From NCBI GenBank assembly GCA_965219535.1, contig CBDCNV010000002.1, positions 1,590,001-1,622,000 on the forward strand: a stretch of DNA of 32,000 bases. Reading direction: 5' to 3'. The notes under the pieces were generated by a model. It did no database searches and had not been told where the DNA came from. It saw nothing but the letters and a program-made list of their open reading frames with translations. Below, in pieces: positions 704 through 30,786 of the stretch (positions within the stretch are counted from its first letter, which is position 1; each line of letters starts with the position of its first letter). The stretch is from Opitutales bacterium (GTDB lineage Bacteria > Verrucomicrobiota > Verrucomicrobiia > Opitutales > PNEW01). A program made the position numbers and the translations under genes.

Positions 704-739
704 GGTAGCAATAATAACACCGTGCCAGTTATTCAGATT

Positions 740-853: not shown

Positions 854-976
854 CAAGATTTCGCTCTTGTCTAACACACCGGCGATACAGAGCCAGCCGC
901 GGGTGTCGAAGATGTATTTTTGCTCGTGGGTCAGTTCGACTACGGGTAATCCATCCGCGTCGATGAGTTCGGACAT
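818..976 (-). pseudogene. Phytanoyl-CoA dioxygenase (PhyH) family, N-terminal stub (52 codons)
   Basis: ATG at 976-974, stop at 820-818. MSELIDADGLPVVELTHEQKYIFDTRGWLCIAGVLDKSEI matches the N-terminal pattern of the intact PhyH genes in this window (compare MLTPEQIAHFETFGFLFMRQVFSSQEM at 15077). After codon ~41 the reading frame runs into repeat copy A (LPSQGSSGMVSQ*), so the HxD / IPGSH catalytic part is missing. Confidence 0.6.
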
Positions 977-1019
977 TTTGGATTTCTCGATTGTGGGATG
1001 GTCTGATAGTCAGCGGTGA

Positions 1020-9564: not shown

Positions 9565-10922
9565 CAGGACATGGTTTACAGATTTAGATCAAGACATGGT
9601 TTACACTTTGTGAGGGATGCTGAACGGTAATCGGGTTATATAGTTAAGTTAATGTTATGCGGTTTTAGAGGTTTGGCTGGCATTGTTGGGGCCGCAAGCG
9701 GCCCCAATGAAAGCAGCCGTTGAAAGGTCAATCTGACCGATTCTGAGAGTGGCAAAGTAAACATCGAAGTGTACCGTGTCTAGTGGTTTTAGTCCAACGC
9801 TCCAACCGGCGAGGGCGGTGGAGATAGGAATCTGGAAGCCATCGAGTTTGATAGACCCGCTTTTTGAGACCCGGCGAGTCATCAAATCATAGCTGATATC
9901 GGCAGGAGTGCCACCGTAAGGATGAGAGCTGTGCTGATAGATTTCAGAGGGCGTGCTCATGGCAAGAGCCGCATGGGGGCGTTCTTCATTGAAGGTCTTG
10001 CGCCACAGATCGAAGGCCACCTGTTGGGTGCGAAGATCGTCCTGGGCATGTTTTTGCAACTCCTCTTTGATATCGCGATGGAGACGCTCATGGGCACCGT
10101 TATCCTGGGGTTTACCCGGACGTCCACGCTCGAGATTGATCCCTAAGGCCAGCCACCAGGCCGCCAGTTTGCTCAGGCCCAGGACCGCATTGGCACTGGC
10201 AAAGGGACTGCCGTTGTCGCTGCGGATGCAAGCGGGAAGTCCATAGCGTTCAAAGAGTTTTGTGAAGCATTCACGCACCGCTTCGCTACGGGCTGAACTG
10301 AGCACCCGCACCTCTAATACATAGCGGCTCCATTCATCCCGTACCGTCAAAGGTTCACAACGGTTGCCATCAACGGTGTGCCACCACCCTTTGAAGTCTA
10401 CGCTCCACACTTCGTTACAGCCACTGGCCTTGACGCTGCGGTAAAGGCGTCCGCTTTTTTGAGCGCTTCTGCGCCGACGCTTTTGCACCAGTCCCGCACG
10501 TTCCAAGACCCGTTTCACGCTCGAGTCTGAGGGGGCCTTCCCGTAACGCCTCTGGTAAAGCTCGCGGATCTTGTAGGGGCCCCACGTCGGGTGATGATGC
10601 TTGAGTTTGATCAGCGTACATACTACTGATTCGGATAGTTCCTGAACACTTCCATGCGGTCGGCGTGAGCGCTCGTGCAACCCCTCCATCCCTTCGCTCA
10701 GGAAGCGCTTCTTCCATTTATACCCTGTCGGTCGGCTGATCCCGTAGTCTTCACACAGCTCGTTCATCTTTACTCCCGGTTGCATCGATTCCAGGGCGAA
10801 TTGGTATCTTTGGTCCATTTTATTTGTTTCCTTCCATGACATCATACCCCTTACTTAGCATCCTTCTTTCTTTGGCAATCTGTAAAGGATGTCCTGAACC
10901 TTTTGTGTAAAGAATGTCTTGA
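9565..10922 (-). mobile_element. IS481-family insertion sequence (~1.36 kb)
   Basis: It carries the 396-aa DDE transposase. Each end has two ~17-bp units in inverted orientation: left caggacatggtttaca (9565-9580) and caagacatggtttaca (9590-9605), right tgtaaaggatgtcctg (10882-10897) and tgtaaagaatgtcttg (10907-10922). The trinucleotide aac flanks both ends (9562-9564 and 10923-10925). Confidence 0.8.
9655..10845 (-). CDS. IS481-family transposase (rve/DDE integrase core)
   Basis: N-terminal HTH (MNELCEDYGISRPTGYKWKKRF). DDE-core signatures are WSVDFKGWW, CIRSDNGSPFAS and GRPGKPQDNGAHERLHRDIKEE. Confidence 0.9.
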   Translation of the reverse strand: MMSWKETNKMDQRYQFALESMQPGVKMNELCEDYGISRPTGYKWKKRFLSEGMEGLHERSRRPHGSVQELSESVVCTLIKLKHHHPTWGPYKIRELYQRRYGKAPSDSSVKRVLERAGLVQKRRRRSAQKSGRLYRSVKASGCNEVWSVDFKGWWHTVDGNRCEPLTVRDEWSRYVLEVRVLSSARSEAVRECFTKLFERYGLPACIRSDNGSPFASANAVLGLSKLAAWWLALGINLERGRPGKPQDNGAHERLHRDIKEELQKHAQDDLRTQQVAFDLWRKTFNEERPHAALAMSTPSEIYQHSSHPYGGTPADISYDLMTRRVSKSGSIKLDGFQIPISTALAGWSVGLKPLDTVHFDVYFATLRIGQIDLSTAAFIGAACGPNNASQTSKTA

Positions 10923-14578: not shown

Positions 14579-15076
14579 GGCGATTGCGGATTGCCGAATT
14601 TAGATTGACGATTGAAATACCTTGTCATCGCGAGGCTGCTTGTCAGCCGTGGCGATCCAGGGGACTGTCGGTTGCGTTTATTCATTCGCCTGGAATGGAA
14701 GATGTCGGACTTCGTCCTCGGAAGCCACGTCGCGTTGCTCCTCGCAATGACAATAAAAAAAATCCACATTCTGCAATCCGACATCCTGAATACTGCATCG
14801 TGCATCCGGTAACTTGCAGCATGCATCATAAATCAATCGACCACCGCTATCGCGTAGGCAACATCCACCATTGATAATTTAAATAACTTTTTAGGCGATG
14901 AGGGTTGAAAGTTGAAGGCCATATCAATTGCGAATTGCGGATTGATATAGAATGCAAGGAACAAAATAACCCTAACGACTTTCTTTCCACCTATATTTAA
15001 TTTCTACCTTTGACTCTAATTCTCCACCTCCCTAAAACTTAAAACCTAACACTGAAAAATCCATAATTTTTTCATT

Positions 15077-15871
15077 ATGTTGACTCCAGAACAAATAGCA
15101 CACTTTGAAACCTTTGGTTTTCTTTTTATGCGGCAGGTTTTCTCTTCACAGGAGATGGAAAAGTTTACACGCGAAGCTGAAAAACTGTGGGAGGAGTATC
15201 GTCGCAATGAGGCCGTAGGTGATGATGGTATACACATGAATTATTTCGCGGAAACGAGTCCAGTATTAACCGAACTGGTGGATGATGACCGAATATTTCA
15301 ACCCGCTGAACAATTGCTTGGACCCGATTTTATCTGGTTTGGATCTGAAGGGAATGTTACGAAAAGAGCCGTCCATAAATGGCATTCGGACCGTAAATGC
15401 TGGCGAAAAGAGGAAGAAGAAGATGTAAGTTATCGCCGCCTGAAAATTATGCTCTATCTTGACCCGGTCACGAAAGATACCGGCTGTCTCCGCATTATTC
15501 CTGGTTCACATCAGATGCCTTTTCATCAGGAACTGGGGGCCCAGGAAATGGATCCACAATCGATGCCATTTGGTGCACTTGGAGAAGATCTTCCTTGTTA
15601 TTCACTGGAGTCAGATCCGGGCGACGTTGTTTTATTTAATCAATGCCTCTTTCACAGCGTCTTCGGTGGCTGGGAAGGTCGCCGCATCATCGCCTTAAAA
15701 TTAGCGGCACACCCAACTAACGATCGTGACCTCAATGCGCTTAATAATACATCATCAATTTACTACGCCAGGAGTAAAGTTTTCCGACCCCATCAAAATT
15801 TTCTCAATAGTAAACGACCGCGTATTCGAGGTATGGTTGAAAATCTCGTCGAGCTTGGTGCGAAAATTTAA
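15077..15871 (+). CDS. Phytanoyl-CoA dioxygenase (PhyH) family Fe(II)/2-oxoglutarate oxygenase
   Basis: 264-aa ORF with LTPEQIAHFETFGFLFMRQVF, HKWHSD (HxD), IIPGSHQ and LFHSVF. Confidence 0.85.
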   Translation: MLTPEQIAHFETFGFLFMRQVFSSQEMEKFTREAEKLWEEYRRNEAVGDDGIHMNYFAETSPVLTELVDDDRIFQPAEQLLGPDFIWFGSEGNVTKRAVHKWHSDRKCWRKEEEEDVSYRRLKIMLYLDPVTKDTGCLRIIPGSHQMPFHQELGAQEMDPQSMPFGALGEDLPCYSLESDPGDVVLFNQCLFHSVFGGWEGRRIIALKLAAHPTNDRDLNALNNTSSIYYARSKVFRPHQNFLNSKRPRIRGMVENLVELGAKI

Positions 15872-16200
15872 CATAACTTAAAAAGGGTCAGGCTTCGCAT
15901 ATCAGCAAAATAAATTGTGCGAGTAAGTGAAGCGCTTGCGATCGAATAACTTTTATAAAAATCTATGCCTACGTATACATTATTTTTCATCTTCAGGGAT
16001 TCCTTCGGTTAGGTGTTTTTGTCGCAATCAAAGATTTTTCTTTTCATGTTACGTGATCCTTCTTTATTGCAAACTGATACAAACGCGCTGAGGACAGCAC
16101 GTTCCACCATTTATTAAATAGTAATTCTTATATACCGCGATCGCGTCTGCAACGTTATGACTATTTGACCTTTTGACTTTTTGACGGGGGAATGTTCGCT

Positions 16201-19200
16201 TCAGCGAACTCCCCCCTCCATCCGTATGCGAGGATCGAGCCACAATAGGAGCAGGTCGCTGACCAGGGTACCCAGAACTCCGAGCAAGCTGAGAATCATG
16301 AGCATCGATCCGGCCAGATACATATCTTCCTTCATCAGTGCCTCCAGCATTAACGGTCCTACCGTGGGTAAGCTGAGGACCATCGCGACGATTGCGCCCC
16401 CGGAGACCAGTTGAGGGAAAATTGCCCCGATACTGGATATGAACGGGTTAAGTGCCAGTCGCACGGGGTATTTGAATAACAGTTTAAAGGGGCGTACCCC
16501 CTTGGCCATCGCGGTAATGACATAAGGTTTTTTCAACTCGTCCAGCAGGTTACCTCGCATTACCCGGATCATACTCGCGGTTCCCGTGGCGCCGAGGACG
16601 ACAACGGGTACCCAGATGTGCTGCAAGAGGTCAACTATTTTACCTTTAGTCCATTCTGGTTGGATTGAATATTCAGGTGAAAATAGACCCGAAATATTAA
16701 CGCCCAGATACTTACTGCTCCAATAAAGAAGGATCAAGGCGAAGAGAAAACTGGGAATACTCATTCCAATGAAACCGATCAATGTAAATACATAATCACC
16801 CAAGGTATATTGGCGAACTGCTGAATATATTCCGATGGGTAAGGCTACTGCCCAGGTAAAGAGTATAGTGCCCATCGAAATGAGCAAAGTTAGAAGGATA
16901 CGATCGCCCACCACTGCATTGACCGTGCTCTGGTTTTCCATGGATAAACCCAAGTGACCCTGTAATAAACCCTGGTCTTTTTTTTCAAAGGAAGTAAACC
17001 AGTTAAGACCTAGCCAAAGTAAATAACGTTCGGCAATAGACTTATCGAGATGAAAGATCTCCCGCAGCTTTTCAATCTCATCGATGTCTACCTGACTACC
17101 TTTTAACTGTAATTCTATAATTTTAGTATCGATATAATTTCCCGGTGGCAGCTGAATGATAACAAAAGAGATCATCGAGATAATGAGAAGAGTCGGACCC
17201 ATGATGAGTAGTCGCCTGCCGATATAAGGATGCCGTATCCCGATCAAAATTATTCCGCAAACGGCAACACCTAAAAACAGTTTTTTTATAAGCCATGCCA
17301 TGCGTTCATTACTGCTTGATGTTGGATCATCTTGGCTGGATCCGTAAGAAGCAGGGGTGATTTCTATCAATTCTTTTTTCATTTGCGCAAGGGTTCCAGG
17401 CGAATGATAAGGCTTCTCAAAGTAGTAGGTTTCCATTCCCGCGTTAGATGGCGTAAGGAAGAATCCACTATAGGCGGCATTGTATGGAACGTTTTTAAAA
17501 TCGTTTTTGACCACTACCGGGAACGGTGGTGAAGTGGTTACATTGATTGACCAGACATTCTCTGCGGCGATGTCGAAAAGCTTATTGAAAATTAACCGTT
17601 GATCTTCACGATTAATTGCACTGTATGATTCATCGATCAGCTTCATTGTCTGTCGCATGGGGTGATCTATCGGTGGTTCAATGCCGCCTAACTCTGTGGC
17701 TTCAGGATTTCCGTAAAGTCCCCCTCCCTTGTACCAATTCTGATAGCCATAGGCTTGATATGCTGATATTCCAGCAATTTTTTTACCCCCTATAACAGGA
17801 ATATATTCTGCGTTCCCAGGATAAATGGAAAATTCGACTTTGCGCGAATTTAGTTGTACTCTAAAGAGGGCCGATGGCGGCTGACGTTGGATGGCGCGAA
17901 TGCCAATACGGCTCCAGTCTTCGATGATGAGCTCCGTCGGTCCTTCGTCTTCTCCCTGTTTAATGGTATAATACCAGACCATACGCGTACCGTCCACAAA
18001 TGTACGGTATCCCTTGGAATCCCTCTGGGTTAGACCGAGCTCGTCGAGTAAGGCGTTAGCCTTGTCGGGTGAATATTCGGTGAAACTTTTATAAAGTTTT
18101 TCATGGTGGAAATATGACTCCCTCCCGGGTGATAACTGTGCGGGTTCTCCCACTCCATTGTATACATTTTCGATTATTTGGCGTCGATTGATGGCGAGGG
18201 AAAGTGCCTGGCGGAACCGTTTGCTGTTGAGCAGATCATGTTTCATTTGGGTAACCGGATCGTCAGGGTCCACCAATAAATTTAGATTTGGATGGATGAG
18301 GTAGCGTGAACGTGAAGCTGGAAACCAGTGATACACTTCGTAATTGTTTATTTCGCGTTGTGACATGAGCAGGGTATAATAGAGATCCATACTGCCAAAA
18401 ATTTTAAAGGTGACGGCTCCACTGGCCGCAGTTATTGGTATAAGCTTATAGGTTTTTGCCTCGGTAAATAATTGGTCCACATAGGGGAGCTGATTGCCCT
18501 CGGTATCAACTGCCCAGTAGAAGGGATTGCGGACAAACACCTGGGGTGGATTCGCTTTAAAAGTGCGATAAAGCCAGGGCCAAATCCTCGGGTGTTCTGG
18601 GTTATTCCAGAGTTTCAATGAAGCATATAGGCTCCTACGCGAAGGTAGCCTCCTTTCTTCCATGTTCGCTTCGATAAAGGCGTCATCACCAAATACCGGG
18701 TGGTATATTTCCAGGTAATGTTGAGGCGAGCAAATATCATTAAATTTAGCCAAGGCTTCTAAAAATGCTCCATAGGGGTGAGGGAAAACGAACTTTACGG
18801 TGTGATCATCGATTTTAGTTATCTCCCCTTTCTTACCGCCTATATCCATCCATTCGGCAGTAGCAACCCCAGGGATATTAAGCGGTATTTCTTTTTCCCA
18901 CCAGTACAGGAGATCATCGGCAGTAAAAGGGTGGCCGTCAGACCACTTCATGCCTCTTCGCAGGTAAAATGTCCATGCCCTCTTATCGGGACTGGAATCC
19001 CAACGCTTAGCGATATGAGGGACGATCGGGTAACCGAGCGGCGACCAGCGAACAAGAGAAGATCCGGCAAAGAAGCTACCGACGTATTCTGCCTGGTGTG
19101 GTGATCCTACCACTTGAAACCAGGTGCCGCCGTATCTACCAATACTGTCCACGCCTTTTAGAACTAACGGCTCGGATCCCACACGTTTGGCCACCGGTGG

Positions 19201-19488
19201 AAGTTTGCCCTCCTCTACCAGCTCGGTGATAATGGGGGATTCGGATTTTGGATACCACGGGCCAGATTTGCCCTCGCGGTAATCAACATCCTGTTGTATT
19301 TTGAAAAGGTCATCCTCGGTGAAACTAACGTCTCTTAACTTTTGAGTGTATTCAATTGTTTCCGGGGTATAGTAAATGGGTTCCTCCTCCAGCTCCGGCT
19401 TTAAAACATCACCCCAAAAATACAAAAATACAAAAAAGGAACAACCCGTAAGAAAAAGAAATCCGCTATACTTCGAAATTTTATTCAT
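16201..19488 (-). CDS. Fusion protein: family-5 (Opp/Dpp-type) ABC substrate-binding domain + DppB/OppB-type ABC permease
   Basis: 1095 aa. It has an N-terminal signal anchor and a ~600-aa solute-binding region (RYGGTWFQVVGSP..., WSDGHPFTADDLLYWWEK). From about aa 735 there is a six-TM permease with the typical N-terminus RRLLIMGPTLLIISMISFVIIQLPPGNYID and an EAA-loop region MRGNLLDELKKPYVITAMAKGVRPFKLLFKYPVRLALNP. No second permease or ATPase gene is nearby. Confidence 0.85.
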   Translation of the reverse strand: MNKISKYSGFLFLTGCSFFVFLYFWGDVLKPELEEEPIYYTPETIEYTQKLRDVSFTEDDLFKIQQDVDYREGKSGPWYPKSESPIITELVEEGKLPPVAKRVGSEPLVLKGVDSIGRYGGTWFQVVGSPHQAEYVGSFFAGSSLVRWSPLGYPIVPHIAKRWDSSPDKRAWTFYLRRGMKWSDGHPFTADDLLYWWEKEIPLNIPGVATAEWMDIGGKKGEITKIDDHTVKFVFPHPYGAFLEALAKFNDICSPQHYLEIYHPVFGDDAFIEANMEERRLPSRRSLYASLKLWNNPEHPRIWPWLYRTFKANPPQVFVRNPFYWAVDTEGNQLPYVDQLFTEAKTYKLIPITAASGAVTFKIFGSMDLYYTLLMSQREINNYEVYHWFPASRSRYLIHPNLNLLVDPDDPVTQMKHDLLNSKRFRQALSLAINRRQIIENVYNGVGEPAQLSPGRESYFHHEKLYKSFTEYSPDKANALLDELGLTQRDSKGYRTFVDGTRMVWYYTIKQGEDEGPTELIIEDWSRIGIRAIQRQPPSALFRVQLNSRKVEFSIYPGNAEYIPVIGGKKIAGISAYQAYGYQNWYKGGGLYGNPEATELGGIEPPIDHPMRQTMKLIDESYSAINREDQRLIFNKLFDIAAENVWSINVTTSPPFPVVVKNDFKNVPYNAAYSGFFLTPSNAGMETYYFEKPYHSPGTLAQMKKELIEITPASYGSSQDDPTSSSNERMAWLIKKLFLGVAVCGIILIGIRHPYIGRRLLIMGPTLLIISMISFVIIQLPPGNYIDTKIIELQLKGSQVDIDEIEKLREIFHLDKSIAERYLLWLGLNWFTSFEKKDQGLLQGHLGLSMENQSTVNAVVGDRILLTLLISMGTILFTWAVALPIGIYSAVRQYTLGDYVFTLIGFIGMSIPSFLFALILLYWSSKYLGVNISGLFSPEYSIQPEWTKGKIVDLLQHIWVPVVVLGATGTASMIRVMRGNLLDELKKPYVITAMAKGVRPFKLLFKYPVRLALNPFISSIGAIFPQLVSGGAIVAMVLSLPTVGPLMLEALMKEDMYLAGSMLMILSLLGVLGTLVSDLLLLWLDPRIRMEGGVR

Positions 19489-19589
19489 CTACAGGACTAA
19501 GCTAAATGTTGGTTGTCGAAGACACGGATTAGCTCGGCATTGTATTAATCATAAGTCTCTAATTAAAAATATCATATGATTAAGCGAAG

Positions 19590-19638
19590 TGGGGTGGCTG
19601 ACCGGATTTGAACCGGCGACCCCCGGAACCACAATCCG
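19590..19638 (-). repeat. tRNA-His 3'-half remnant (anticodon GTG; putative att-site copy 2)
   Basis: The reverse complement reads cggattgtggttccgggggtcgccggttcaaatccggtcagccacccca. The anticodon loop ttGTGgt reads His, and the discriminator C plus CCA are as expected for tRNA-His. It is 45/49 identical to 3687-3735. The upstream sequence (gaaactatcttatataactacagtcct) has no D arm or 5' acceptor strand. Confidence 0.8.
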
Positions 19639-19928
19639 AGGACTGTAGTTATATAAGATAGTTTCATAAATACTTATTACTTATATAAATACCTTAATCG
19701 CATAGGTTAATGTATTTAATATACCTAATACTTAATTAGCATGAAAAGGCAAGATTAGGAATTAAAATGCGTGTATTATGATAGGAATTAGTAGGAATAA
19801 ATAAAAAGGGAAGGGGTTGGTATTCGAGAGAATACGTTACGTACTAATTAGAATTATATGTTATCTGCTAATTCTAGGCTAGATTTTTATAAAAAAACTT
19901 GAGTTGAACTGCGCCCGTTTAATGTAAC

Positions 19929-20105
19929 AGCGCCAGAGTTATATCCAGCTGGGTGGTCTTTTAGTATTATAATCAGACCAATAGGTTTCGAGTTTTCTCT
20001 CACTTCAGCCAGTTTACATAATATCTCTGTGTTAAGAAGTTCATCACGTAAGCGTTCATTGAAGCTCTCAATATAACCATTTTTACTGTTTTGCCTTGGT
20101 CGAGA
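19929..20105 (-). pseudogene. ISb-like transposase orfB 3' fragment
   Basis: It aligns with ISb 26990-27175. For example, gttaagaagttcatcacgtaagcgttcattgaagctctcaatataaccatt matches gttaagaagttcatctcgtaagcgtccattgaagctctcaatataaccatt. It is truncated on both sides. Confidence 0.75.
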
Positions 20106-20710
20106 TCACGGAAACTGGGCCACCTGGAAAGGACACAGACAATGAAAGGCAAAAGCTACACAACAAAAGAGAAAATGCGGATACTGAGGCAGGCGGACAA
20201 ATGGATAACGATCATGGAAGCATGCTGCGAGAACAACATAAACGAACATACCTTCCACCGCTGGAAGCGTGAGTTTGAGATGATGGATGTCAACGAGGTC
20301 AAGCGGATGATGAAGCTTTTTGGATAAAAACGCACAGCTAAAACGGAGGCTGACGGACAAGATGCTAGGGATAGAGATCCTGCAGGAGCCCCTAGGGAAA
20401 AAATGGAAAATGTCGATTAAGCTAGGTAGTAAGGTCCTGGGACTTTGTCCATGATCGCACAGACAATGACGGTCCATTAAAGATGATGACTCTGATCGAT
20501 GAATATACGCGTAAATGCCTCGATATCCGGGTAGCTCGTCAACTCACCTCAGCCGATGTCCTCTCTGTGCTTAGCGAGGCCATTGAAGAGGAGGGAGCTC
20601 CTAGCTATATCCGTAGTGACAACGGCAGTGAGTTCATTGCTCATCAAGTGTAGCAGTGCTTGTCTGACAAAAACATCAAGGCGGTCTATATAGATCCGGG
20701 CAGTCCCTGG

Positions 20711-20755
20711 CTACCGAGCGAAGCGACACCTCAACGAGCCATAGCGAGAATAACA
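20711..20755 (+). repeat. Mini-insertion I3 (45 nt) in ISa copy 1
   Basis: ctaccgagcgaagcgacacctcaacgagccatagcgagaataaca splits the canonical IS3 motif PGSPW-x-NGFIESF, adding LPSEATPQRAIARIT. Confidence 0.7.
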
Positions 20756-20795
20756 AACGGCTTCATCGAGTCGTTTCACAACCGCTTACGCGATG

Positions 20796-20832
20796 TACCG
20801 AGGAACGTAGTTACGACATAACGAAGCGCTCA
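20796..20832 (+). repeat. Mini-insertion I4 (37 nt), present in ISa copy 1 only
   Basis: Copy 2 reads cgcgatgAGtgtttgaacc (RDECLN). Copy 1 reads cgcgatg-taccgaggaacgtagttacgacataacgaagcgctca-tgtttgaacc. Confidence 0.7.
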
Positions 20833-21094
20833 TGTTTGAACCGTGAAGTGTTGCTCAGCATAGCTGAAGCACAAGTGGTAATCGAACAATGGCGTCATAC
20901 CTACAATAATGAACATCCCCACAGTCGTTTAGGCTTCAAAAGCCCACAAGAGTTTGTCAGATTCCTTTCCGATCTTGGCCGCGTTCAGGCTACGCCCTCA
21001 CTACGCCTAGATCTCTCCTATACATCAATCCTAAAACCATTAACACCCGGTAACTCTCTCACTTAAAAATTAGTACGAAAGACGGGGTCCAATC

Positions 21095-21850
21095 ATGACT
21101 TTCGATTCATTAATTTCTGATGCGCTGAATCACAAAATTTCTGGTTGGAACTTTTCCTATATAGAAGAGAGATCCCTGATGGAAGATCTCAAGTGGAATT
21201 ACCGAGAGATTGTGTCCAGCAGATTTAAGCCTGACATTACTTTATTGGATATGGGAACGGGCGGTGGTGAGCTTTTGGCATCCTTCAGGGGCTTACCCGA
21301 GAATACGATTGCTACAGAGGGCTACCCTCCCAATGTCCCTGTCGCCCGTAAAAGACTGGAGTCACTGGGTATTCAGGTCTTCGAGGTATCAGAGGATCTC
21401 ACCTTGCCTTTTGATGACAAGTCCTTTGACTTAATCATCAATCGTCATGAAGCCTATTCATCCGACGAAGTTTATCGCATTCTGAAAGATGACGGCCAGT
21501 TCATTACTCAGCAGGTAGGCGGATCAAATAATTTCAGGTTAAACGAGCTCTTACAGGATACCCCGACTAATAGCTTCGCACACTGGAATTTAGACTTCGA
21601 TTTAAAGGAGATTGAAAATGCATGGTTTAAAATAGGTGAAAAAAGGGAGGCGTTTCCAAAAACACAATTTCTCGATGTTGGTGCCATTGTATTTTACATT
21701 AGGATGCCCCCTTATCAGTTCTCCGATTTTTTTATAAATAAATACCGCGACGGATTATTTAAAATCCATCAATACATCCAAGAAAAGGGAAGTCTGGAGG
21801 TTCAGAGCCATCGTTTCCATTTTGAAGCATATAAATCTCCTCTCAACTAA
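21095..21850 (+). CDS. Class I SAM-dependent methyltransferase
   Basis: 251 aa. Motif I is LLDMGTGGGELL, followed by an acidic post-I region and FDLIINRHE. No DNA-MTase motifs (D/NPPY, PCQ) were seen. The ATG lies 3 nt after the ISa copy 1 terminus. Confidence 0.85.
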   Translation: MTFDSLISDALNHKISGWNFSYIEERSLMEDLKWNYREIVSSRFKPDITLLDMGTGGGELLASFRGLPENTIATEGYPPNVPVARKRLESLGIQVFEVSEDLTLPFDDKSFDLIINRHEAYSSDEVYRILKDDGQFITQQVGGSNNFRLNELLQDTPTNSFAHWNLDFDLKEIENAWFKIGEKREAFPKTQFLDVGAIVFYIRMPPYQFSDFFINKYRDGLFKIHQYIQEKGSLEVQSHRFHFEAYKSPLN

Positions 21851-21909
21851 CAATAAAGATTCGATACAGTAGGTATTATAGTACATTCATTTGAAAGTTA
21901 CTTATTCAG

Positions 21910-22656
21910 ATGAACGAATATACAATGTTATGTACCGAGATGTATGATCTCGATAAACCAAGTGCTCCGGACGATGTTTTATCTTTTTACCTGGATTATG
22001 CAGAAAAAGCTAAAGGACGCGTGTTAGCACCGATGTGTGGTACTGGCCGATTTCTGATTCCGCTATCGGAGAGAGGTTTTTCCATAGATGGATTCGACAA
22101 CTCTGTATATATGTTAGAAGCCTGCAAAAGAAAGTGTGAGACTATGCAACTTAATGCAAATTTATGGAAAGCGAATTTAGAAGATTTTGATGCCAGCAAG
22201 CAGTATGCTCTGATTCTCATACCATCGGGTTCGTACGGGTTAATAATCTGTGACGATGCTGTTGCAAAAAGTTTAAAAAATATGAAAGACCATCTTTTGC
22301 CGGGTGGCACCCTTGTCCTGGAAATCGAGACCCCTTCAATTAAACCCGATAACTCTATTGAATGGGTCGAATCTAAGAGAAGAAAAAGAAAAAATGGGGA
22401 CATCATAGTCGAAAATGTTAAAACGAGCTATGATACAGAAAAAAGATTGGCGATTTTTCATCTCCGGTATGAATTATTGACTGGGAATAAAATTGTTGAA
22501 ACCGAGTGCATGGATTTAGTTACACGGTTATATTACATCGAGGAATTTGAAGACATTCTTAAAGCCAATGGGTTTAATAAAATTAAATCATTAAAAGCAT
22601 ACGATCAAACTACACCGGGTGTAGATGATGGGACAGTCGTTTTCGAATGCAAATAG
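21910..22656 (+). CDS. Class I SAM-dependent methyltransferase
   Basis: 248 aa. Motif I is VLAPMCGTGRFLIPL, then DGFDNS and YALILIPSGSYGLI. The segment is AT-rich compared with neighbouring blocks. Confidence 0.85.
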   Translation: MNEYTMLCTEMYDLDKPSAPDDVLSFYLDYAEKAKGRVLAPMCGTGRFLIPLSERGFSIDGFDNSVYMLEACKRKCETMQLNANLWKANLEDFDASKQYALILIPSGSYGLIICDDAVAKSLKNMKDHLLPGGTLVLEIETPSIKPDNSIEWVESKRRKRKNGDIIVENVKTSYDTEKRLAIFHLRYELLTGNKIVETECMDLVTRLYYIEEFEDILKANGFNKIKSLKAYDQTTPGVDDGTVVFECK

Positions 22657-22810
22657 CCAATCTTGAGAAAATGATTGGGTGTTGATCATCATGGCCGAAT
22701 ATATGATCAGTCCACAGGGAGTCCGTATGGGACGGTCAAGCCGTATTCATATATCCATACTTGTAACGGATCAGAAAATCGGGTTGTGTCTCAGTTTAAA
22801 TTTACATGGA

Positions 22811-22854
22811 GTGCCCCAAAAATCGTATCATTTACAGAGAGAGGTTATCGGGAT
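22811..22854 (+). repeat. Solo left terminal repeat of ISa (remnant)
   Basis: gtgccccaaaaatcgtatcatttacagagagaggttatcgggat matches the ISa copy 2 left end tgaccccaaaaaatggtatcatttacagggagaggttatcgggat. Homology stops after ~44 nt. Confidence 0.75.
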
Positions 22855-23475
22855 CGTTTGTCGATAATTTACGGCCATTTTAAAGGGGTGCCCCTGCTAG
22901 ATTTTTTGATTATACCCCCAATTGTAGCGAGTGCCTCATCAGTAATTACTGGAGCATCATGGAGCCGGGCTGACCCTACATTGTAGTATATACCTCCCCT
23001 TGTCCCTATTGCAGTGTAATATAGATTTTATATGCTAAAGGGCTTCATTTTGGTGTCAAAAGCGAAGCTTTTGGGGACTGTAAGCGTTTTAATTTCGGAC
23101 CTTCGGTATAGGACAATATAACATAACATCACTATATTAAGGGCAAAGGAAACCCCTGTGGGAATGACGGGGGGTAGTTCAGCGAAGAGCAAGCAGATCA
23201 GCTGATCGAGGGAGTAGCACCTAGGCAGCCACATTTAATAATTGCTTACTAGCATAACATAGGTTATTTTAATAGCTAGCAACAAACCAAAAACGTGAAA
23301 ATTAGTTAACGGATTTTAACCCCAAAATTATCTCAATCAGCAGTGATAAAATGAATTTATTGGTGTCTGAACTTAATGATACTAGGGGCATCTATTTTAA
23401 AGACTATTCTAAGCTATTTAGATGGTGAAAACTTGCACTTACTCTGCATTAGATAAAATATTAAACTGAATCGTT

Positions 23476-23910
23476 ATGGATAAGAAACAAAAACATTTTG
23501 AAATGATACAAGGAGTTATTAATAGGTTATCTCAAAACTCTTTCCTCCTTAAAGGGTGGAGTGTTATCTTGGTTTCTGCACTATTTGCTCTAGCTGCGAA
23601 TAATACTAATCCCGCTTTTATATTTCTGGCATATTTCCCAGCGTTAGCGTTCTGGATTTTAGATGGATACTATTTATGGCAAGAACGCCTATTTAGAGCT
23701 CTATATGATTATGTCAGAGGATTAGATAATGAGGATATCGATTTCTCGATGAACACATCCGTCGTAAGTAAAAGCGTGGATTCATGGCCATGTGTTATAG
23801 TATCAAAAACACTTTTAATATTTCATTTAGCAGCTGTTCTTGGTGCTATTACAATTGTCGCGGCTATAATGATAATTCAAATATGTGGAGGTTTATGCAA
23901 TGCCTCGTAG
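23476..23910 (+). CDS. Small three-TM membrane protein (144 aa), candidate effector partner of the adjacent TIR-like protein
   Basis: An in-frame tga lies 2 codons upstream of the ATG. Predicted TM segments are GWSVILVSALFALAA, AFIFLAYFPALAFWILDGYYL and TLLIFHLAAVLGAITIVAAIMIIQICG. An amphipathic linker WQERLFRALYDYVRGL lies between TM2 and TM3. The 3' end overlaps the next gene by 11 nt. Confidence 0.7.
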   Translation: MDKKQKHFEMIQGVINRLSQNSFLLKGWSVILVSALFALAANNTNPAFIFLAYFPALAFWILDGYYLWQERLFRALYDYVRGLDNEDIDFSMNTSVVSKSVDSWPCVIVSKTLLIFHLAAVLGAITIVAAIMIIQICGGLCNAS

Positions 23911-24346
23911 AGTATTTTTCAGCTTTCATTACCAACGAGATATTTGGAGGGTTAACCAAATTAGAAGCATGCAAAATATAATAGGTAGTTCTGCTGCTGG
24001 TTTTGAAGATGCTTCATTATGGGAAGCAACAAGAAAAAGAGGTAGTTATGCAATTAAAAGACTTATAAATAATGGATTAAAAAATACATCTGTTACTGTA
24101 GTATTCATCGGTGCAAAAACTTCTCGAAGAAAATACGTAAACTATGAGATTGACCAATCAATAAAGAGGGGAAACGGAATAGTTGGCATCCAAATACACC
24201 ATCTAAAGAATGAGAAGGGTTATGGAGATATGAAAGGTCTTATCCCTTACAAACTCAAGGGTAAAGGTTACAAAGTTTATAAATATTATAATCGCGTATT
24301 ATTGGCTAAACAAATTGAAGAAGCTGCCAAAGCAGCAGGTAAGTAA
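23900..24346 (+). CDS. thsB: ThsB-like TIR-like (DUF1863 type) domain protein
   Basis: The track ORF starts at GTG 23885, but ATG 23900 has a GGAGG (23887-23891) 8 nt upstream, so I prefer it. MPRRVFFSFHYQRDIWRVNQIR...AAGFEDASLWEATRKRGSYAIKRLINNGLKNTSVTVVFIGAKTSRRKYVNYEIDQSIKRGNGIVGIQIHHL closely parallels the Bacillus cereus ThsB sequence as I recall it (RVFFSFHYQ...RVN, ASLWE, LKRLIN-GL-NTSVT, R-x-V-x-YEI, GN-I-GI-I). Confidence 0.85.
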   Translation: MPRRVFFSFHYQRDIWRVNQIRSMQNIIGSSAAGFEDASLWEATRKRGSYAIKRLINNGLKNTSVTVVFIGAKTSRRKYVNYEIDQSIKRGNGIVGIQIHHLKNEKGYGDMKGLIPYKLKGKGYKVYKYYNRVLLAKQIEEAAKAAGK

Positions 24347-24378
24347 TATTAGTTTTATGCCTAACCAAGGCGCTGCAT

Positions 24379-24428
24379 CTTAGCTAGTCTATACCTTGGC
24401 TTATGGTAGACTGCACCAGCTAAGTTTT
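24379..24428 (+). terminator. Possible intrinsic terminator after the TIR-like gene
   Basis: The outer stem is cttagct (24379-24385) / agctaag (24418-24424). The inner stem is agtcta (24386-24391) / tagact (24407-24412). It is followed by tttt (24425-28). The loop is long and the T-run short, so the call is weak. Confidence 0.3.
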
Positions 24429-24633
24429 GCTCACCGCATAGGTTTCCACTAACCATTCGACAATCGCCTTCTTGCGCACAGGTTTTATAACTTTTTTGCG
24501 ATAACTTCCTGCAGCATGTGCTTGTCCAGACTCAGCTCAGCTACCAGCTTCTTCAAGCTGGCGTTCTCTTCGTCGAGCTGCTTCAGCCGTCTTAACTTGC
24601 TCATTCCCATGCCCGTGTATTTACCTTTCTGGT
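24424..24633 (-). pseudogene. ISb fragment (orfA 3' end / orfB 5' end), truncated by ISa copy 2
   Basis: It aligns with ISb ~27727-27938, including the slippery run cttttttgcga. It stops abruptly at the ISa terminus at 24634. Confidence 0.8.
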
Positions 24634-24934
24634 TGGACCCCGTTTTTCGTATCAATTATTAAGTGAGAGAGTAACCGGGTGTTAATGGTTTAAGGATTGA
24701 TGTATATGAGAGATCTTGGCGCAGTGAGGGCGTAGCCCGAACGCGGCCAAGATCGGAAAGGAATCAGACAAACTCTTGTGGGCTTTTAAAGCCTAAACGA
24801 CTGTGGGGATGTTCATGGTTGTAGGTCTGACGCCATTGTTCGATTACCCCTTGCGCTTCAGCCACGCTGAGCAACACTTCACGGTTCAAACACTCATCGC
24901 GTAAGCGGTTGTGAAACGATTCGATGAAACCATT

Positions 24935-24979
24935 TGTTATTCTCGCTATGGCTCGTTGAGGTGTCGCTTCGCTCGGTAG
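24935..24979 (-). repeat. Mini-insertion I3 (45 nt) in ISa copy 2
   Basis: Same block and same site as 20711-20755. Confidence 0.7.
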
Positions 24980-25057
24980 CCAGGGACTGCCCGAATCGAT
25001 ATAGATCGCCTTGATGTTTTTGTCGGACAACCACTGCTGCACTTGATGAGCAATGAA

Positions 25058-25090
25058 TGGCTTCGCATGTCGTCGCTTCGCTCCTCGGAA
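25058..25090 (-). repeat. Mini-insertion I2 (33 nt), present in ISa copy 2 only
   Basis: Copy 1 reads aacggcagtgAGttcattgc (DNGSEFIA). Copy 2 reads aacggcagtg-ttccgaggagcgaagcgacgacatgcgaagcca-ttcattgc. The net change is +31 nt, which breaks the frame. Confidence 0.7.
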
Positions 25091-25217
25091 CACTGCCGTT
25101 GTCACTACGGATATAGCTGGGAGTACCCTCCTCTTCAATGGCCTCGCTAAGCACAGAGAGGACATCGGTTGAGGTGAGTTGACGGGCGACCCGGATATCC
25201 AAGCATTTACGCGTATA

Positions 25218-25261
25218 TGTCTTCGCTTCGCTTGAGTGTCGTCGCTTTCAGCTCCTCGGTA
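25218..25261 (-). repeat. Mini-insertion I1 (44 nt), present in ISa copy 2 only
   Basis: Copy 1 reads gatcgatgAAtatacgcg (LIDEYTR). Copy 2 reads gatcgatg-taccgaggagctgaaagcgacgacactcaagcgaagcgaagaca-tatacgcg. The net change is +42 nt. Confidence 0.7.
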
Positions 25262-26023
25262 CATCGATCAGAGTCATCATCTTTAATGGACCGCCATTGT
25301 CTGTGCGATCATGGACAAAGTCCCAGGACCAAACGTGATTGCGACCGGTTGCTTTAGTAGGCGACCCTGTAGAGATCCCTTGACGGTGTCTACGCTTTTT
25401 CGGTGGCTTTACCTGCAACCCTTCTGAACGTCGTACCGCCTGAACAAACTTCCTGCTTGTTGTCCAGCCTTCCTTTACAAGCAAGGCACGGATGCGACGG
25501 TAACCGTAGCGAGGATGTTCCCAGGACAGGGTTACAATCCGCTCGGCCAATCGCTGAGCTTTCTTATTGGCCTGCTTGGGCCGGTAGCTGTACGTTGACC
25601 AACTGAGGCTGAGATAAACACAAGCCCTCTAAAACGAGCACAGCCCTCGCTCAGCCGCATCTTTTACTACTCGCTTCTTCTGCTTTGGGCTCACCACTTT
25701 TTTGACAACGTTTCCTCCATTACCTGATTCTTGAGCATTTGATCAGCAAGCAGCTTCTTCAACTCGGTGTTTTCTTTTTCCAGTTCTTTAAATCGCTAGA
25801 GCATCGGCCAGTTCTAAATGGCCATACTTTTTACCCCAGCGATAGAAGGTCTGTTCACTTAGATTGTTGCCTCGGCAGATTTCCTCTACCGTTTTCCCGG
25901 TATCGGCTTGCCGCAGTATTGCGATTATCTGTTCTGTTGTCTATCGTTTTCTTTTCATTGAGGTTATCTGTTTATCCCGATAACCTCTCCCTGTAAATGA
26001 TACCATTTTTTGGGGTCACTCAA

Positions 26024-26914: not shown

Positions 26915-27780
26915 TTACTGTACCAGAGCCAGTGTTAGATCCGGCAGGGTGGTAAGGTTTTTGATTTGCTTAGACACGGCTCTCTGGGCGTATTCGGCCG
27001 GAGGCCGATAGCCCAGAGAACTGTGTGGTCTTTGAGTATTATAATCAAGCCGCCAGGTTTCAAGTTTTTCTTTCGCTTCAGCGAGCGTACAAAATAGCTC
27101 GGTGTTAAGAAGTTCATCTCGTAAGCGTCCATTGAAGCTCTCAATATAACCATTCTCTACGGGTTTGCCTGGCCGGATAAAATCCAGCTTGATGCCATGG
27201 CCATAAGCCCATTCATCGAGTACTTTCCCTGCAAACTCGGGACCATTATCGACGGTAATGGTTTGGGGAAGACCGATTCCTGCAGCGGCTTTCATAAGTG
27301 CGGCAGCGACTTTGTACCCACCGATGGACGTATCGACCAAAAGCAGTGGGCAAGCTCGGGTGTATTGATCGACAACGGTGAGTATGCGGAAGGGGCGGCC
27401 GTTGACCAGCCGATCGCTCATAAAGTCCATCGACCAGCGCTCCTGGGCTGCTGTAGCCGTGGGCAGTGAGACCCGCCTTTGGCGGCACGCTTCTTTCGTT
27501 TCTTCGTGCGCACTTCCAGCCCTTCGGCCTTGTAGATACGATAAACGCGTTTCTTTCCTACCGTCCAGCCTTCCCGCTTTAATAACACCGTGATTCGCCG
27601 ATACCCGTAGCGCACCCGCGCGGCGGCGAGGTCACCGATGCGCATGATCAGCGCACGTTCGTCCTTCTTCACCGGCTGGTAGTTATAACTCGACCAAGAC
27701 AACTGCATCAACCTGCACGCCCGGCGTTTGCTAACCGCATAAGCTTCCACTAACCAGTCAGTAATCGCCTTCTTGCGCAC
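26915..27780 (-). pseudogene. ISb transposase orfB (DDE/rve), broken by a 1-nt frameshift near 27470-27490
   Basis: Track ORFs 27418..27780 (…[26 protein letters not shown]…) and 26915..27430 ([27 protein letters not shown]…TVDNGPEF…[24 protein letters not shown]…[12 protein letters not shown]) are two parts of one orfB. The expected ...[13 protein letters not shown] continues in the other frame upstream of 27430. Confidence 0.8.
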
Positions 27781-27785
27781 AGGCT

Positions 27786-28058
27786 TTATAACTTTTTTGC
27801 GATTACTTCCTGCACCATGTGCTTGTCCAGGCTCAGATCAGCTACCAGCTTCTTCAAACTCGCGTTCTCTTCGTCGAGTTGCTTCAGCCGTCTTAATTCG
27901 CTTATTCCCAGGCCCGCGTATTTACCCTTCCAACGATGGTAGGTCTGTTCGCTTACGCCTAACTCTCGGCACACTTCGGCAATCCTTCGACCGCCATCTA
28001 CCTGCCTTAGGGCATAAGTGATTTGTTCTTTATGATAACGTTTGCCTTTGCTTTTCAT
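27786..28058 (-). CDS. ISb transposase orfA (HTH, IS3/IS911 type)
   Basis: MKSKGKRYHKEQITYALRQVDGGRRIAEVCRELGVSEQTYHRWKGKYAGLGISELRRLKQLDEENASLKKLVADLSLDKHMVQEVIAKKL is the canonical IS3 OrfA with a leucine zipper. Confidence 0.9.
   Translation of the reverse strand: MKSKGKRYHKEQITYALRQVDGGRRIAEVCRELGVSEQTYHRWKGKYAGLGISELRRLKQLDEENASLKKLVADLSLDKHMVQEVIAKKL
27792..27798 (-). promoter_or_regulatory. Programmed -1 ribosomal frameshift heptamer A AAA AAG at the orfA/orfB junction of ISb
   Basis: The minus strand reads gca aaa aag tta taa. Slipping -1 gives AKK-VIKPVRKKAITDWLVEAYAVSKRRAC..., joining orfA to the orfB frame as in other IS3-family members. Confidence 0.75.
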
Positions 28059-28239: not shown

Positions 28240-30786
28240 TTACTCGGCTAACTGCATCATCCCTGTTTCCTGTATTATGTGCCTATCTAGAAAACACTTC
28301 CATTGCATATTCTCATAGAAGAAGTGAAACGGCATAATAGGTACCCAGATAAAGGGTTCTGCATCTGAGTCGGTTTGTAAGCGGGGATGAAAATTCGAAG
28401 GGGGAGGCAACTCAGGAATTACTTTATCATCTGGACCCCACGAAGGATATTTGTCCTGTTTTTTGTCCTTTCTTAAGTAAAAGAGCGCTGCCCCAGAAAT
28501 CACTAATTTTGCATCATTTCCATACCAGCGACGATTTAACATGACCTCTTCAATCCAGAAAACATTGGTAGATTGGAAGTGCAGATTTAGTATAATTTCT
28601 CTCAGACTATCCCTCTTTTTCTCTACCCCTGCATACTCATCAGCCAATCTAGGATGAATCATAAGCATGGAATCGATTTCGGCCTCGGTCAGGTTATCGA
28701 TCTCTACTGGTTTTATCCGATTGAGCCGGTCGATGAAGTTGTTTAATTCGTCCGTAACCTCCCCATACCTTGATGATGCTTCGATAAACGCTTCGATGAA
28801 CTCCCGAGACAAAACAAGGTGATTAACCCCATCCTCTTCTATGATGGAAGTATATGTACCTCTTGTAGCTTTAATACTAGGATGAGCCCTTCTGCCTGAT
28901 TGCATTAGAAAAAATTTTGTTTCCACTTCACGATCATCTATTTGGAATTTATCAGAACGAGCGCCTTCCCAACCGCGTTTTTCAACTTTGTAATCATGAG
29001 CAAACTCACCAGACTCAAAGAGATTACTGACCGTCCAGATTAACTTGGCCTTGTCGAGGTTTTCATAATCGCCATCTTCAAAAATGACAGGGAACTCGCT
29101 TGTGCCCGCCTTCACCCGCAAATCCTCTCCCTCCACGGGTTCACTCTGAGCTTCCCCATCTTTTAGCTCTGTTGCTACGTCTGGATCTGAAACAGAATCT
29201 GTATTAATACCCTGCTTTGTTTTGAATAATTTTTCTTTCCATTGATACCACTTTTCCACTCCTTCCTTATATTCTGCGGTTTTTACCATTCTATCTGATG
29301 GATACGACCAAGGTGGATTGGGGACTAGTTTACTGAGTATTTTCATACTTTCCTCATCAAGAAATTTAAATTCTGCAAGTGTATGATCACCAATATAGTT
29401 TGCCAATGGTTCGATAACTCGATCACCGCCAATCGCTTTAAGTTTCATTAATGCGGTATAACGTACCAACCTATCTTCATGTCTCGTGTGCTCAACGATT
29501 CTTTGAAATATCGCATCATCACCTAATAAGACTAGGGCGACTTCTGCTCTACCTTGATCTGAGTCATAACGAACAATATCCTTATACTCTCTTACGTGCG
29601 TTAGATAGTTTATCATTGGACGATTTGCTACTTCACGCAAGAAGGGTATTGCTTCAGGATCGCCAAGACGTCCTATTTCGACGATGATATCATTGTAGCG
29701 CCTTGGCATATTTGCTGTATCTTTAGCTTTCGCGTTTTCATACTGGTCCTTGAGTTCAACCCAATTTGGTATCTCCCCATATAATGATAATTTCACTTCT
29801 CTGAGTATCCTCATACTTTCTATTTCTAAAACTACACTGTTATCACCAATATAGTTTGCCAAAGGTTCAATAACTCGCTCACCGCCAATCGCATTAAGTT
29901 TATTTAATGCGGAACGACGGACAAACACATCATCATATCTCGTGTGCTCAACGATTTTTTGAAATATATCATCATCACCTAATAAGACTAAAGCAACTTC
30001 TGCCTTACCATGATCTGATTCATAACGAGCAATATCCATATACTTTGCTGATGCGGGTGTTCTAGGGGGCATAGGTTGCGTCGCTACTTCACGCAGGAAA
30101 GGTATTGCTTCAGGGTCACCAAGTCGTCCTATTTCGACGATGATATCATTGTAGCGCCATGGTTCATTTTTGTAGCGCCATGGGTGAATTGATAAATATT
30201 TAGCTTTCGCGATCTCATACTGGTCCTTGAGTTGAACCCAATTTGGTACCTCCCCATATAATGATAATTTCACTTCTCTGAGTATCCTCATACTTTCTAT
30301 TTCTAAAACTATACTTTTATCTCCAATATAGTTTGCCAATGGTTCAATAACTCGTTCACCGCCAATCGCATTAAGTTTCTTTAATGCAGAATGACGGACA
30401 AACACATCTTCATTTCTCGTGTGCTCAACGATTTTTTGAAATATCGCATCATCACCTAGTAAGACTAAAGCAACTTCTGCCTTACCATGATCTGATTCAT
30501 AACGAGCAATATCCTTATACTTTGTTGATACGGGTGTTCTAGTGGGCATAGGTTGCGTCGCTACTTCACGCAAGAAGGGTATTGCTTCAGGGTCGCCAAG
30601 ACGTCCTATTTCGACGATGATATCATTGTAGCGCCATGGTTGATTTCCTAAGCCTTTGGCTTTCGCGTTCTCATACTGGTCCTTGAGTTGAACCCAATTT
30701 GGTGTCTCCCAAAATAAATATAAGTTCACAACAGAAAATATTATTACCAGGAAAATAAATAATAACTGAGATGATTTTATTGTCAT
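28240..30786 (-). CDS. Membrane-anchored protein with 3 tandem ~150-aa HEAT/PBS-lyase-like repeat units and an unknown ~360-aa C-terminal domain
   Basis: 848 aa. The N-terminal TM is LLFIFLVIIFSVVNLYLFW. The repeated unit is PNWVQLKDQYENAKAK...RYNDIIVEIGRLGDPEAIPFLREVA...AEVALVLLGDDAIFQKIVEHTR..D.FVR.SAL.KLNAIGGERVIEPLANYIGD. I recognise no family in the C-terminal domain. Confidence 0.88.
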   Translation of the reverse strand: MTIKSSQLLFIFLVIIFSVVNLYLFWETPNWVQLKDQYENAKAKGLGNQPWRYNDIIVEIGRLGDPEAIPFLREVATQPMPTRTPVSTKYKDIARYESDHGKAEVALVLLGDDAIFQKIVEHTRNEDVFVRHSALKKLNAIGGERVIEPLANYIGDKSIVLEIESMRILREVKLSLYGEVPNWVQLKDQYEIAKAKYLSIHPWRYKNEPWRYNDIIVEIGRLGDPEAIPFLREVATQPMPPRTPASAKYMDIARYESDHGKAEVALVLLGDDDIFQKIVEHTRYDDVFVRRSALNKLNAIGGERVIEPLANYIGDNSVVLEIESMRILREVKLSLYGEIPNWVELKDQYENAKAKDTANMPRRYNDIIVEIGRLGDPEAIPFLREVANRPMINYLTHVREYKDIVRYDSDQGRAEVALVLLGDDAIFQRIVEHTRHEDRLVRYTALMKLKAIGGDRVIEPLANYIGDHTLAEFKFLDEESMKILSKLVPNPPWSYPSDRMVKTAEYKEGVEKWYQWKEKLFKTKQGINTDSVSDPDVATELKDGEAQSEPVEGEDLRVKAGTSEFPVIFEDGDYENLDKAKLIWTVSNLFESGEFAHDYKVEKRGWEGARSDKFQIDDREVETKFFLMQSGRRAHPSIKATRGTYTSIIEEDGVNHLVLSREFIEAFIEASSRYGEVTDELNNFIDRLNRIKPVEIDNLTEAEIDSMLMIHPRLADEYAGVEKKRDSLREIILNLHFQSTNVFWIEEVMLNRRWYGNDAKLVISGAALFYLRKDKKQDKYPSWGPDDKVIPELPPPSNFHPRLQTDSDAEPFIWVPIMPFHFFYENMQWKCFLDRHIIQETGMMQLAE
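29326..30708 (-). repeat. Three tandem in-frame repeats (~456, ~474 and ~453 nt) inside the 848-aa gene
   Basis: Units cover aa ~27-178, 179-336 and 337-487. Units 1 and 2 are very similar at DNA level. For example, gataacactgt/ctatacttttatc...caatatagtttgccaa(a/t)ggttcaataactcg recurs at ~29835 and ~30310. Unit 3 is more diverged. Confidence 0.85.

Follow-up and report, generated by a model that had tools for sequence, protein, structure and literature searches.

Type I Thoeris systems pair the TIR protein ThsB with ThsA, an effector built from SIR2 and SLOG domains, and the locus described here raises the question of what a ThsB-like protein does when the gene overlapping its own encodes a small membrane protein instead. 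The locus lies within 32,000 nucleotides (nt) of contig CBDCNV010000002.1 (assembly GCA_965219535.1, positions 1,590,001 to 1,622,000), which derive from an uncultured Opitutales bacterium; we refer to this whole stretch as the window and count all positions from its first letter. Its two overlapping genes, thsF and thsB, encode proteins of 144 and 148 amino acids (aa), respectively. Judged from their sequences, the two genes are very probably an intact type V Thoeris anti-phage system, arranged thsF then thsB between fragments of IS3-family insertion sequences (ISs). What carries this reading is the homology of both proteins, the operon structure, the conserved residues, and a recurrent linkage to TIR genes across phyla. 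The pair is a new example of a known, validated system and not a new system.

A ThsB-type TIR gene overlaps a gene for a small membrane protein

The two genes lie on the same strand and overlap by 11 nt (23900-23910), with the thsF stop codon TAG at 23908-23910 (Table 1). In a mechanical list of open reading frames (ORFs), the TIR frame opens earlier, with a GTG at 23885. The start that biological evidence supports is the ATG at 23900, because homologues and solved ThsB structures align from that methionine, and the protein then begins MPRRVFFSFHYQ. A GGAGG precedes this ATG with a spacer of 8 nt. An earlier note on this DNA, made from the letters alone, had placed such a site for the second gene inside the first, which we confirm, although the position it implied was off by one base. 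The remaining anatomy that it described (two ORFs, an 11-nt overlap, an AT-rich patch, and IS3 debris) was borne out by the ORF list, the sequence, the GC content, and the repeats, and so were its identification of the second protein as a ThsB/DUF1863 TIR protein, its three transmembrane (TM) helices in the 144-aa protein, and its failure to find a SIR2, SLOG, or Macro partner, as detailed below. Across 14 related loci, the spacing of thsF and thsB varies between an overlap of 23 nt and a gap of 34 nt, and the identical 11-nt overlap recurs in four of them.

Table 1. Features of the thsF-thsB locus, in window coordinates.
Feature	Position	Strand	Basis
thsF, probable type V Thoeris effector, 144 aa, ATG start	23476..23910	+	ORF list, PADLOC, homology
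thsB, ThsB/DUF1863-type TIR protein, 148 aa, predicted infection sensor and signal synthase	23900..24346	+	Pfam, PADLOC, homology
GGAGG ribosome-binding site of thsB, within the 3' end of thsF	23887..23891	+	Read from the sequence
AT-rich intergenic region 5' of thsF, presumed to hold the operon promoter	23235..23475	+	Sequence, inference only
Left IS3-family fragment, inverted copy of 24630-25330, context only	20433..21095		Inverted repeats; HTH_Tnp_1 and rve genes on matching contig
Right IS3-family fragment, context only	24630..25330		Inverted repeats; ORFs with rve_3 and HTH_21

The TIR protein matches the Pfam family ThsB_TIR (PF08937) with an E-value of 5.3e-25, the PADLOC ThsB models at 2.7e-50, and the solved Bacillus cereus ThsB structures 6LHY and 9B7D at 2e-29, and it is 55% identical to the type I ThsB of B. 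cereus MSX-D12. The B. cereus protein reportedly makes 3'cADPR, an isomer of cyclic ADP-ribose (cADPR) (Ofir 2021, Leavitt 2022). Within the motif VNYEIDQS of the window protein, the candidate catalytic residue E83 aligns with the glutamate of RYEI in B. cereus ThsB, which we take, after Ofir et al. 2021, to be the catalytic E85. On this alignment, ThsB is predicted to keep the catalytic glutamate. The two proteins are closely related, and 3'cADPR is probably a signal that the window pair shares with type I Thoeris. In contrast, the type I effector has no counterpart here: Pfam searches found no SIR2, SLOG, or Macro domain among the ~20 larger ORFs of the window, ten of which were also compared with PADLOC, and no SIR2/SLOG ThsA was found beside close relatives of the pair. 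The predicted effector of the window would act on the membrane and would not deplete nicotinamide adenine dinucleotide (NAD+).

That effector, ThsF, matches the PADLOC model PDC-M50A over its full length (4.7e-50). It belongs to no family in Pfam, where a sub-threshold match to DUF3325 (E 0.022) was the only one, and a search of NCBIfam returned nothing meaningful. Hydropathy analysis revealed three hydrophobic stretches (residues ~27-43, ~47-62, and ~105-135), and an AlphaFold2 model of the monomer is all helical, with a mean predicted local distance difference test score of 82, a long helix at 2-43, helices across 47-81, two short helices, and a helix at 111-143. Hydropathy and model thus agree on three predicted membrane-spanning helices. 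The resulting order consists of an N-terminal amphipathic helix, TM1, TM2, a conserved and presumably cytoplasmic helix (LDGYYLWQERLFRALYDYVR), the motif IDFSM, and TM3. Residues that are invariant or nearly so across the family fall into the N-terminal amphipathic helix (H7, Q12, R17, S22, F23, and K26) and into the helix and loop that follow TM2 (L62, D63, W68, Q69, E70, R74, R81, D89, and M92). By the positive-inside rule, both conserved segments, including all of their conserved polar residues, would face the cytoplasm.

The pair is homologous to type V Thoeris

Both proteins are covered by an existing prediction. The adjacent window genes match the two models of PDC-M50, a candidate in PADLOC-DB v2.0.0 (2023), with E-values of 4.7e-50 for A and 2.2e-45 for B. 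The PDC candidates arose from 'guilt by embedding', a prediction from location within known defence loci (Payne et al., 10.1101/2024.01.29.577857), and PDC-M50 itself is a bioinformatic candidate with no mechanism attached; our literature search on PDC-M50 found no paper naming it.

In December 2025, a preprint reported a survey of TIR operons in which seven new Thoeris types were validated (Yirmiya et al., bioRxiv 10.64898/2025.12.03.692087). Among these, type V consists of a TIR protein and a three-TM effector, ThsF, which carries the label DUF2270, and it was validated with systems from Bacillus thuringiensis DAR 81934 and Bacillus sp. 1NLA3E. The B. thuringiensis system protects Bacillus subtilis, and its TIR protein produces 3'cADPR upon infection. 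Cells that carry this system are poisoned by added 3'cADPR but not by 2'cADPR or cADPR, and 3'cADPR is toxic only when the type V system is present; furthermore, defence is blocked by Tad1, a 3'cADPR sponge (Yirmiya et al., 2025). In the same work, AlphaFold 3 modelled ThsF as a channel of seven identical protomers with basic pockets at their interfaces.

We compared the window pair with the validated system after tracing the latter to its sequence. The TIR sequence printed in Table S1 of the preprint for the B. thuringiensis system is 100% identical to protein P0121, on whose contig a 141-aa gene lies directly downstream of the TIR gene after a 13-nt gap, a position that agrees with the consecutive IMG gene numbers listed for TIR and effector. 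The window ThsF is 48% identical to this 141-aa ThsF over 118 aa (E 2e-41), and both match PDC-M50A at about 1e-48 to 1e-50. Table S1 entries labelled 'DUF2270 - Type V' include short ThsB-type TIRs very close to the window ThsB, and TIR 2517691597, which bears that label, is 59% identical to it (E 4e-50). Because ThsF is homologous to the validated ThsF and the type V TIRs of Table S1 are close to ThsB, we assign the window pair to type V Thoeris, with which it shares a two-gene operon for a TIR protein and a three-TM protein of ~140 aa. Membership in type V was defined here by homology to the validated ThsF and not by a Pfam label.

Membrane-disrupting effectors that respond to a nucleotide-derived small signal, as for ThsF, also occur in type II Thoeris (TIR with TM-Macro) and among the SLATT effectors of type VII Thoeris and of the cyclic oligonucleotide-based anti-phage signalling system (CBASS). 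The type II effector contains a Macro domain and its signal is His-ADPR, whereas the window ThsF has no Macro domain; the type VII signal is canonical cADPR, and neither the window ThsF nor 30 relatives matched SLATT in Pfam, even at E<=10. Unlike the type II and SLATT effectors, ThsF has no separate globular sensor domain.

These comparisons also settle what remained of the earlier note. Its functional logic, in which a small membrane effector of a Thoeris-like pair is presumably gated by the TIR product and needs no ThsA, was essentially right. The sequence-based findings that would have refuted it (no linkage of the 144-aa protein to TIR genes, a truncated ThsA, or a canonical thsA beside relatives) were each decided in its favour, as described below. 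Its proposal of an undescribed effector class, and with it the rank of strongest novel-system candidate, does not hold, since the pair was already covered by PDC-M50 in 2023 and by type V Thoeris in December 2025. The suggestion of a SLATT-like effector found no match in any SLATT model, and SLATT effectors define type VII. The view that the 144-aa protein is too small for a sensor conflicts with the published model, which places the pockets between ThsF protomers.

ThsF homologues recur beside TIR genes across phyla

The ThsF family is large. We found 3,749 homologues in a 90%-clustered collection, and a profile search gave 4,985 ThsF-family clusters at 50% identity, with members mostly of ~130-150 aa. 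When lengths were surveyed for the best 120 of the 3,749 and the best 150 of the 4,985 homologues, nearly all had ~130-170 aa; the best 120 spanned 131-168 aa, and none of them had a Pfam domain. The few longer homologues among those listed were SLOG fusions or carried N-terminal extensions without a Pfam domain. The TM ORF could have been the truncated N terminus of a longer ThsA, a possibility raised in the earlier note, and we rejected it on these lengths, which place the protein at the full length of its family.

Gene neighbourhoods were scanned at 29 loci, with one genome per species and more than 10 phyla represented, including Chloroflexota, Bacteroidota, Latescibacterota, Planctomycetota, Poribacteria, and Bacillota. 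A TIR gene adjoins thsF at 20 of the 29 loci, which indicates that homologues of the 144-aa protein do co-localize with TIR genes. The neighbour is a ThsB-type TIR gene directly downstream of thsF at 15 loci and after one inserted gene at three, a TIR_2-type gene at one, and a CAP12-type gene at one; at most of the loci without a TIR neighbour, an IS element or the end of a contig interrupts the region. A TIR neighbour was also present at each of four additional metagenomic loci, one of which adjoins Vsr, Dcm, and Mrr genes. Overall, the partners of ThsF span several TIR families (ThsB_TIR, TIR_2, CAP12-type, and the B. thuringiensis type), and both gene orders, thsF first and thsB first, are seen. 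No canonical ThsA of the SIR2-SLOG or TM-Macro kind was found beside any surveyed thsF locus, whether genomic, metagenomic, or on a plasmid. In a plasmid collection, ThsF homologues were present in 141 records, mostly conjugative plasmids of Klebsiella (40 records) and Escherichia (36 records). The pair is annotated as 'hypothetical protein' and 'TIR domain-containing protein' on Priestia megaterium p1, Desulforapulum pHRM2a, and pCuAs of K. pneumoniae ATCC BAA-2146.

Several loci depart from the two-gene arrangement. Two TIR genes accompany thsF at L040:4001-5385, L017:1576-3142, L033:2495-5147, L015:2989-4973, and L041:4001-8417, where they are either two ThsB_TIR genes or members of mixed TIR families, and a TIR_2-NACHT protein is encoded near one of them. 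Type V systems with more than one TIR gene thus seem common. P0254 (378 aa) is a SLOG-ThsF fusion with a Pfam-confirmed N-terminal SLOG domain, and P0252 (362 aa), which has no Pfam match, appears by sequence resemblance to be another. A Desulfobacteraceae metagenome-assembled genome (L010:2828-3896) encodes a separate SLOG cluster3 gene that overlaps the start of thsF, and no TIR gene flanks the two. The SLOG-ThsF arrangements described here may be the 'SLOG and 4TM' candidates of the preprint. A Macro-domain gene lies directly upstream of thsF in three Latescibacterota genomes (L013:3328-4026, L016:3454-4026, and L020:2865-3914), overlapping it in two of the three; in L013 and L016, thsF and thsB are separated by a gene for an AAA_22 ATPase. 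The Macro gene could encode an enzyme that degrades a signal derived from ADP-ribose (ADPR), or it could be an unrelated neighbour.

Taken together, the SLOG fusions, the SLOG overlap, and the Macro neighbours suggest that the TM module of ThsF is a portable output cassette, and the fusions, as far as their sequences tell, show that module as the output of a nucleotide-sensing domain. A stronger version, in which the module is a general, exchangeable output cassette rather than a self-sufficient receptor and the thsF-first variant is perhaps gated by another ADPR-derived signal or by contact with ThsB, strikes us as unlikely.

Proposed mechanism and its alternatives

By analogy with the published homologue, ThsB would detect phage infection and turn NAD+ into a cADPR isomer, most likely 3'cADPR, which would bind positively charged pockets between the protomers of a membrane-embedded ThsF homo-oligomer. 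The oligomer would then breach the membrane, such that growth stops or the cell dies before the phage cycle completes. ThsF would be sensor and effector at once, and no ThsA would be needed. For the window pair, we infer the identity of the signal, the formation of an oligomer, the damage to the membrane, and the resulting protection from these published results. The predicted cytoplasmic placement of the conserved ThsF segments fits the published positively charged signal pocket between protomers, and the location of R17, K26, R74, and R81 on that side is compatible with the pocket model, although it is no test of it.

Several points weigh against this account. The oligomeric ThsF channel is itself a model, and ThsF resembles no solved structure: searching PDB sequences with a ThsF profile returned nothing, and when the ThsF model was compared with the PDB by Foldseek, no hit reached E<=0.001 and the top-ranking ones were generic helical bundles. 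External 3'cADPR did not trigger the 1NLA3E system, one of the two type V systems that were defensive, and E. coli gained no protection from a type V system of Vibrio cholerae (Yirmiya et al., 2025); therefore, signal identity and activity are not transferable with certainty to the window pair. The window order thsF-thsB differs from the order thsB-thsF in B. thuringiensis, and the window TIR is of the short DUF1863/ThsB_TIR type, whereas the validated B. thuringiensis TIR has 252 aa and belongs to another TIR clade. The window host is an uncultured bacterium. The pair sits amid IS debris, where its expression is presumed, and a scan for promoters and terminators did no better than on shuffled sequence, with consensus promoter sites no more frequent than there. 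Finally, the window ThsF does not match DUF2270 (PF10028), even at E<=10, and the validated B. thuringiensis ThsF likewise gave no match.

Concerning this last point, PF10028 was tried and rejected as a criterion for type V, because the validated ThsF fails it and the label therefore does not discriminate. Weak matches to PF10028 were seen for four of 30 diverse ThsF relatives (best E 0.0038). By the preprint's own statement, its effector labels are noisy, having been taken from cluster representatives (Yirmiya et al., 2025).

The result with 1NLA3E bears on a first alternative, in which the architecture is the same and the signal is another one (2'cADPR, canonical cADPR, or a new molecule), or ThsF needs a second input. 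We consider this rather unlikely, though it deserves weight: signals vary between Thoeris types (Yirmiya et al., 2025), at least four distinct TIR families are paired with ThsF, and several loci have two TIR genes. However, the window ThsB has its 55% identity to a type I 3'cADPR synthase, that of B. cereus, and the window ThsF its 48% identity to a ThsF that responds specifically to 3'cADPR, and both argue for type V signalling through 3'cADPR.

The exchange of TIR partners bears on a second alternative, in which there is no signalling at all, the TIR protein is a toxic effector that depletes NAD+, and the small membrane protein is an anchor, a regulator, or a sensor. For TIR configurations that are unverified, the preprint itself allows for this (Yirmiya et al., 2025), and translational coupling would suit a stoichiometric complex. 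Nevertheless, the type V effector responds to a small molecule added from outside, and defence fails in the presence of a 3'cADPR sponge (Yirmiya et al., 2025), and ThsF swaps between unrelated TIR families and is also fused to SLOG sensor domains. Because of this swapping and these fusions, we favour ThsF as a signal-receiving output module over a dedicated partner with a single interaction surface, and we regard a system without signalling as highly improbable.

Insertion sequences surround the pair

The DNA around the pair stands out by its composition, with a GC content of 0.36 over 23.0-24.5 kb vs 0.39-0.64 over 0-19.5 kb (mostly 0.41-0.58 over 3.5-19.5 kb). The AT-rich DNA that carries thsF-thsB was probably acquired horizontally. 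The left and right IS fragments of Table 1 are inverted copies of one IS and are 92-99% complementary, and they bracket two genes for S-adenosylmethionine (SAM) methyltransferases (21095-22656) together with thsF-thsB, such that the whole resembles a composite transposon. We assign the copies to the IS3 family because their ORFs contain HTH_Tnp_1, HTH_21, and rve domains. Further repeats include a solo IS end of 41 nt (22814-22854, matching 25974-26014) and a second repeated element at 24426-24629 and 27727-27930. A second public assembly is 99.93% identical to the window over 13476-24892 and then departs from it inside the right IS, which indicates either an IS-mediated rearrangement or an assembly difference.

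With such surroundings, the pair could be an inactive relic that was once functional, became stranded between IS3 fragments, and is now neither expressed nor protective. The degraded state of the bracketing IS copies, the lack of promoter sites above chance, the second assembly that differs just downstream and would point to local rearrangement, and the visible disruption of several thsF relatives (L005, L006, L021, L026, and L028) all favour a relic. However, both ORFs are intact and full length relative to their families, all invariant ThsF residues and the ThsB glutamate are kept, and the pair is identical across three independent assemblies, and we accordingly give the relic little credence next to an intact type V system.

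The neighbouring genes were also considered as parts of a larger defence locus. The two methyltransferases were rejected as evidence of a defence island, as their weak, partial matches to PADLOC 'mad2' reflect only the generic SAM-methyltransferase core. A HEAT-repeat protein adjoins thsFB on Desulforapulum pHRM2a, and another is encoded 4 kb from the pair in the window; a HEAT-repeat protein as an extra component was rejected as coincidence, given a pairwise E-value of 0.019 between the two. The window protein, which is unrelated to its counterpart on pHRM2a, is an 848-aa HEAT/PBS-lyase-repeat protein (28240-30786, - strand) with long internal repeats (e.g., residues ~39-200 recur at ~219-390).

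Other features of the window

The segment 26915-28058 (- strand) holds a nearly complete IS3-family element with HTH_Tnp_1, HTH_21, and rve ORFs in the usual order, apparently split by frameshifts. Paralogous genes at 7281-9500 and 12371-14578 encode proteins of 739 and 735 aa that both contain an Ig_7 (CHU_C-associated Ig-like) domain, and the last 1.1 kb of the two genes are ~89% identical in DNA; the interval between the genes contains a transposase gene of the IS481 type (9655-10845, - strand) and an ORF of 387 aa without a family. An unusual 1095-aa ORF (16201-19488, - strand) fuses SBP_bac_5 substrate-binding and BPD_transp_1 permease domains. The first part of the window (1-3578) is a GC-rich block (0.61-0.64 vs 0.35-0.58 in the rest), within which an 852-aa ORF (1020-3578, - strand) has no Pfam or PADLOC match.

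Significance

With this locus, type V Thoeris gains a further example, which comes from an uncultured bacterium. On how a membrane protein of ~140 aa reads a cADPR signal, the locus gives no special handle. It does exemplify a layout, with a ThsB_TIR-type protein and thsF first, that environmental genomes commonly contain, whereas laboratory tests have used the Bacillus arrangement. The survey that accompanied it shows that the 'DUF2270' label fails to detect ThsF and that SLOG-ThsF fusions exist, and it reveals a very large ThsF family, of ~5,000 clusters at 50% identity, that extends over many phyla and onto plasmids of Klebsiella and Escherichia.

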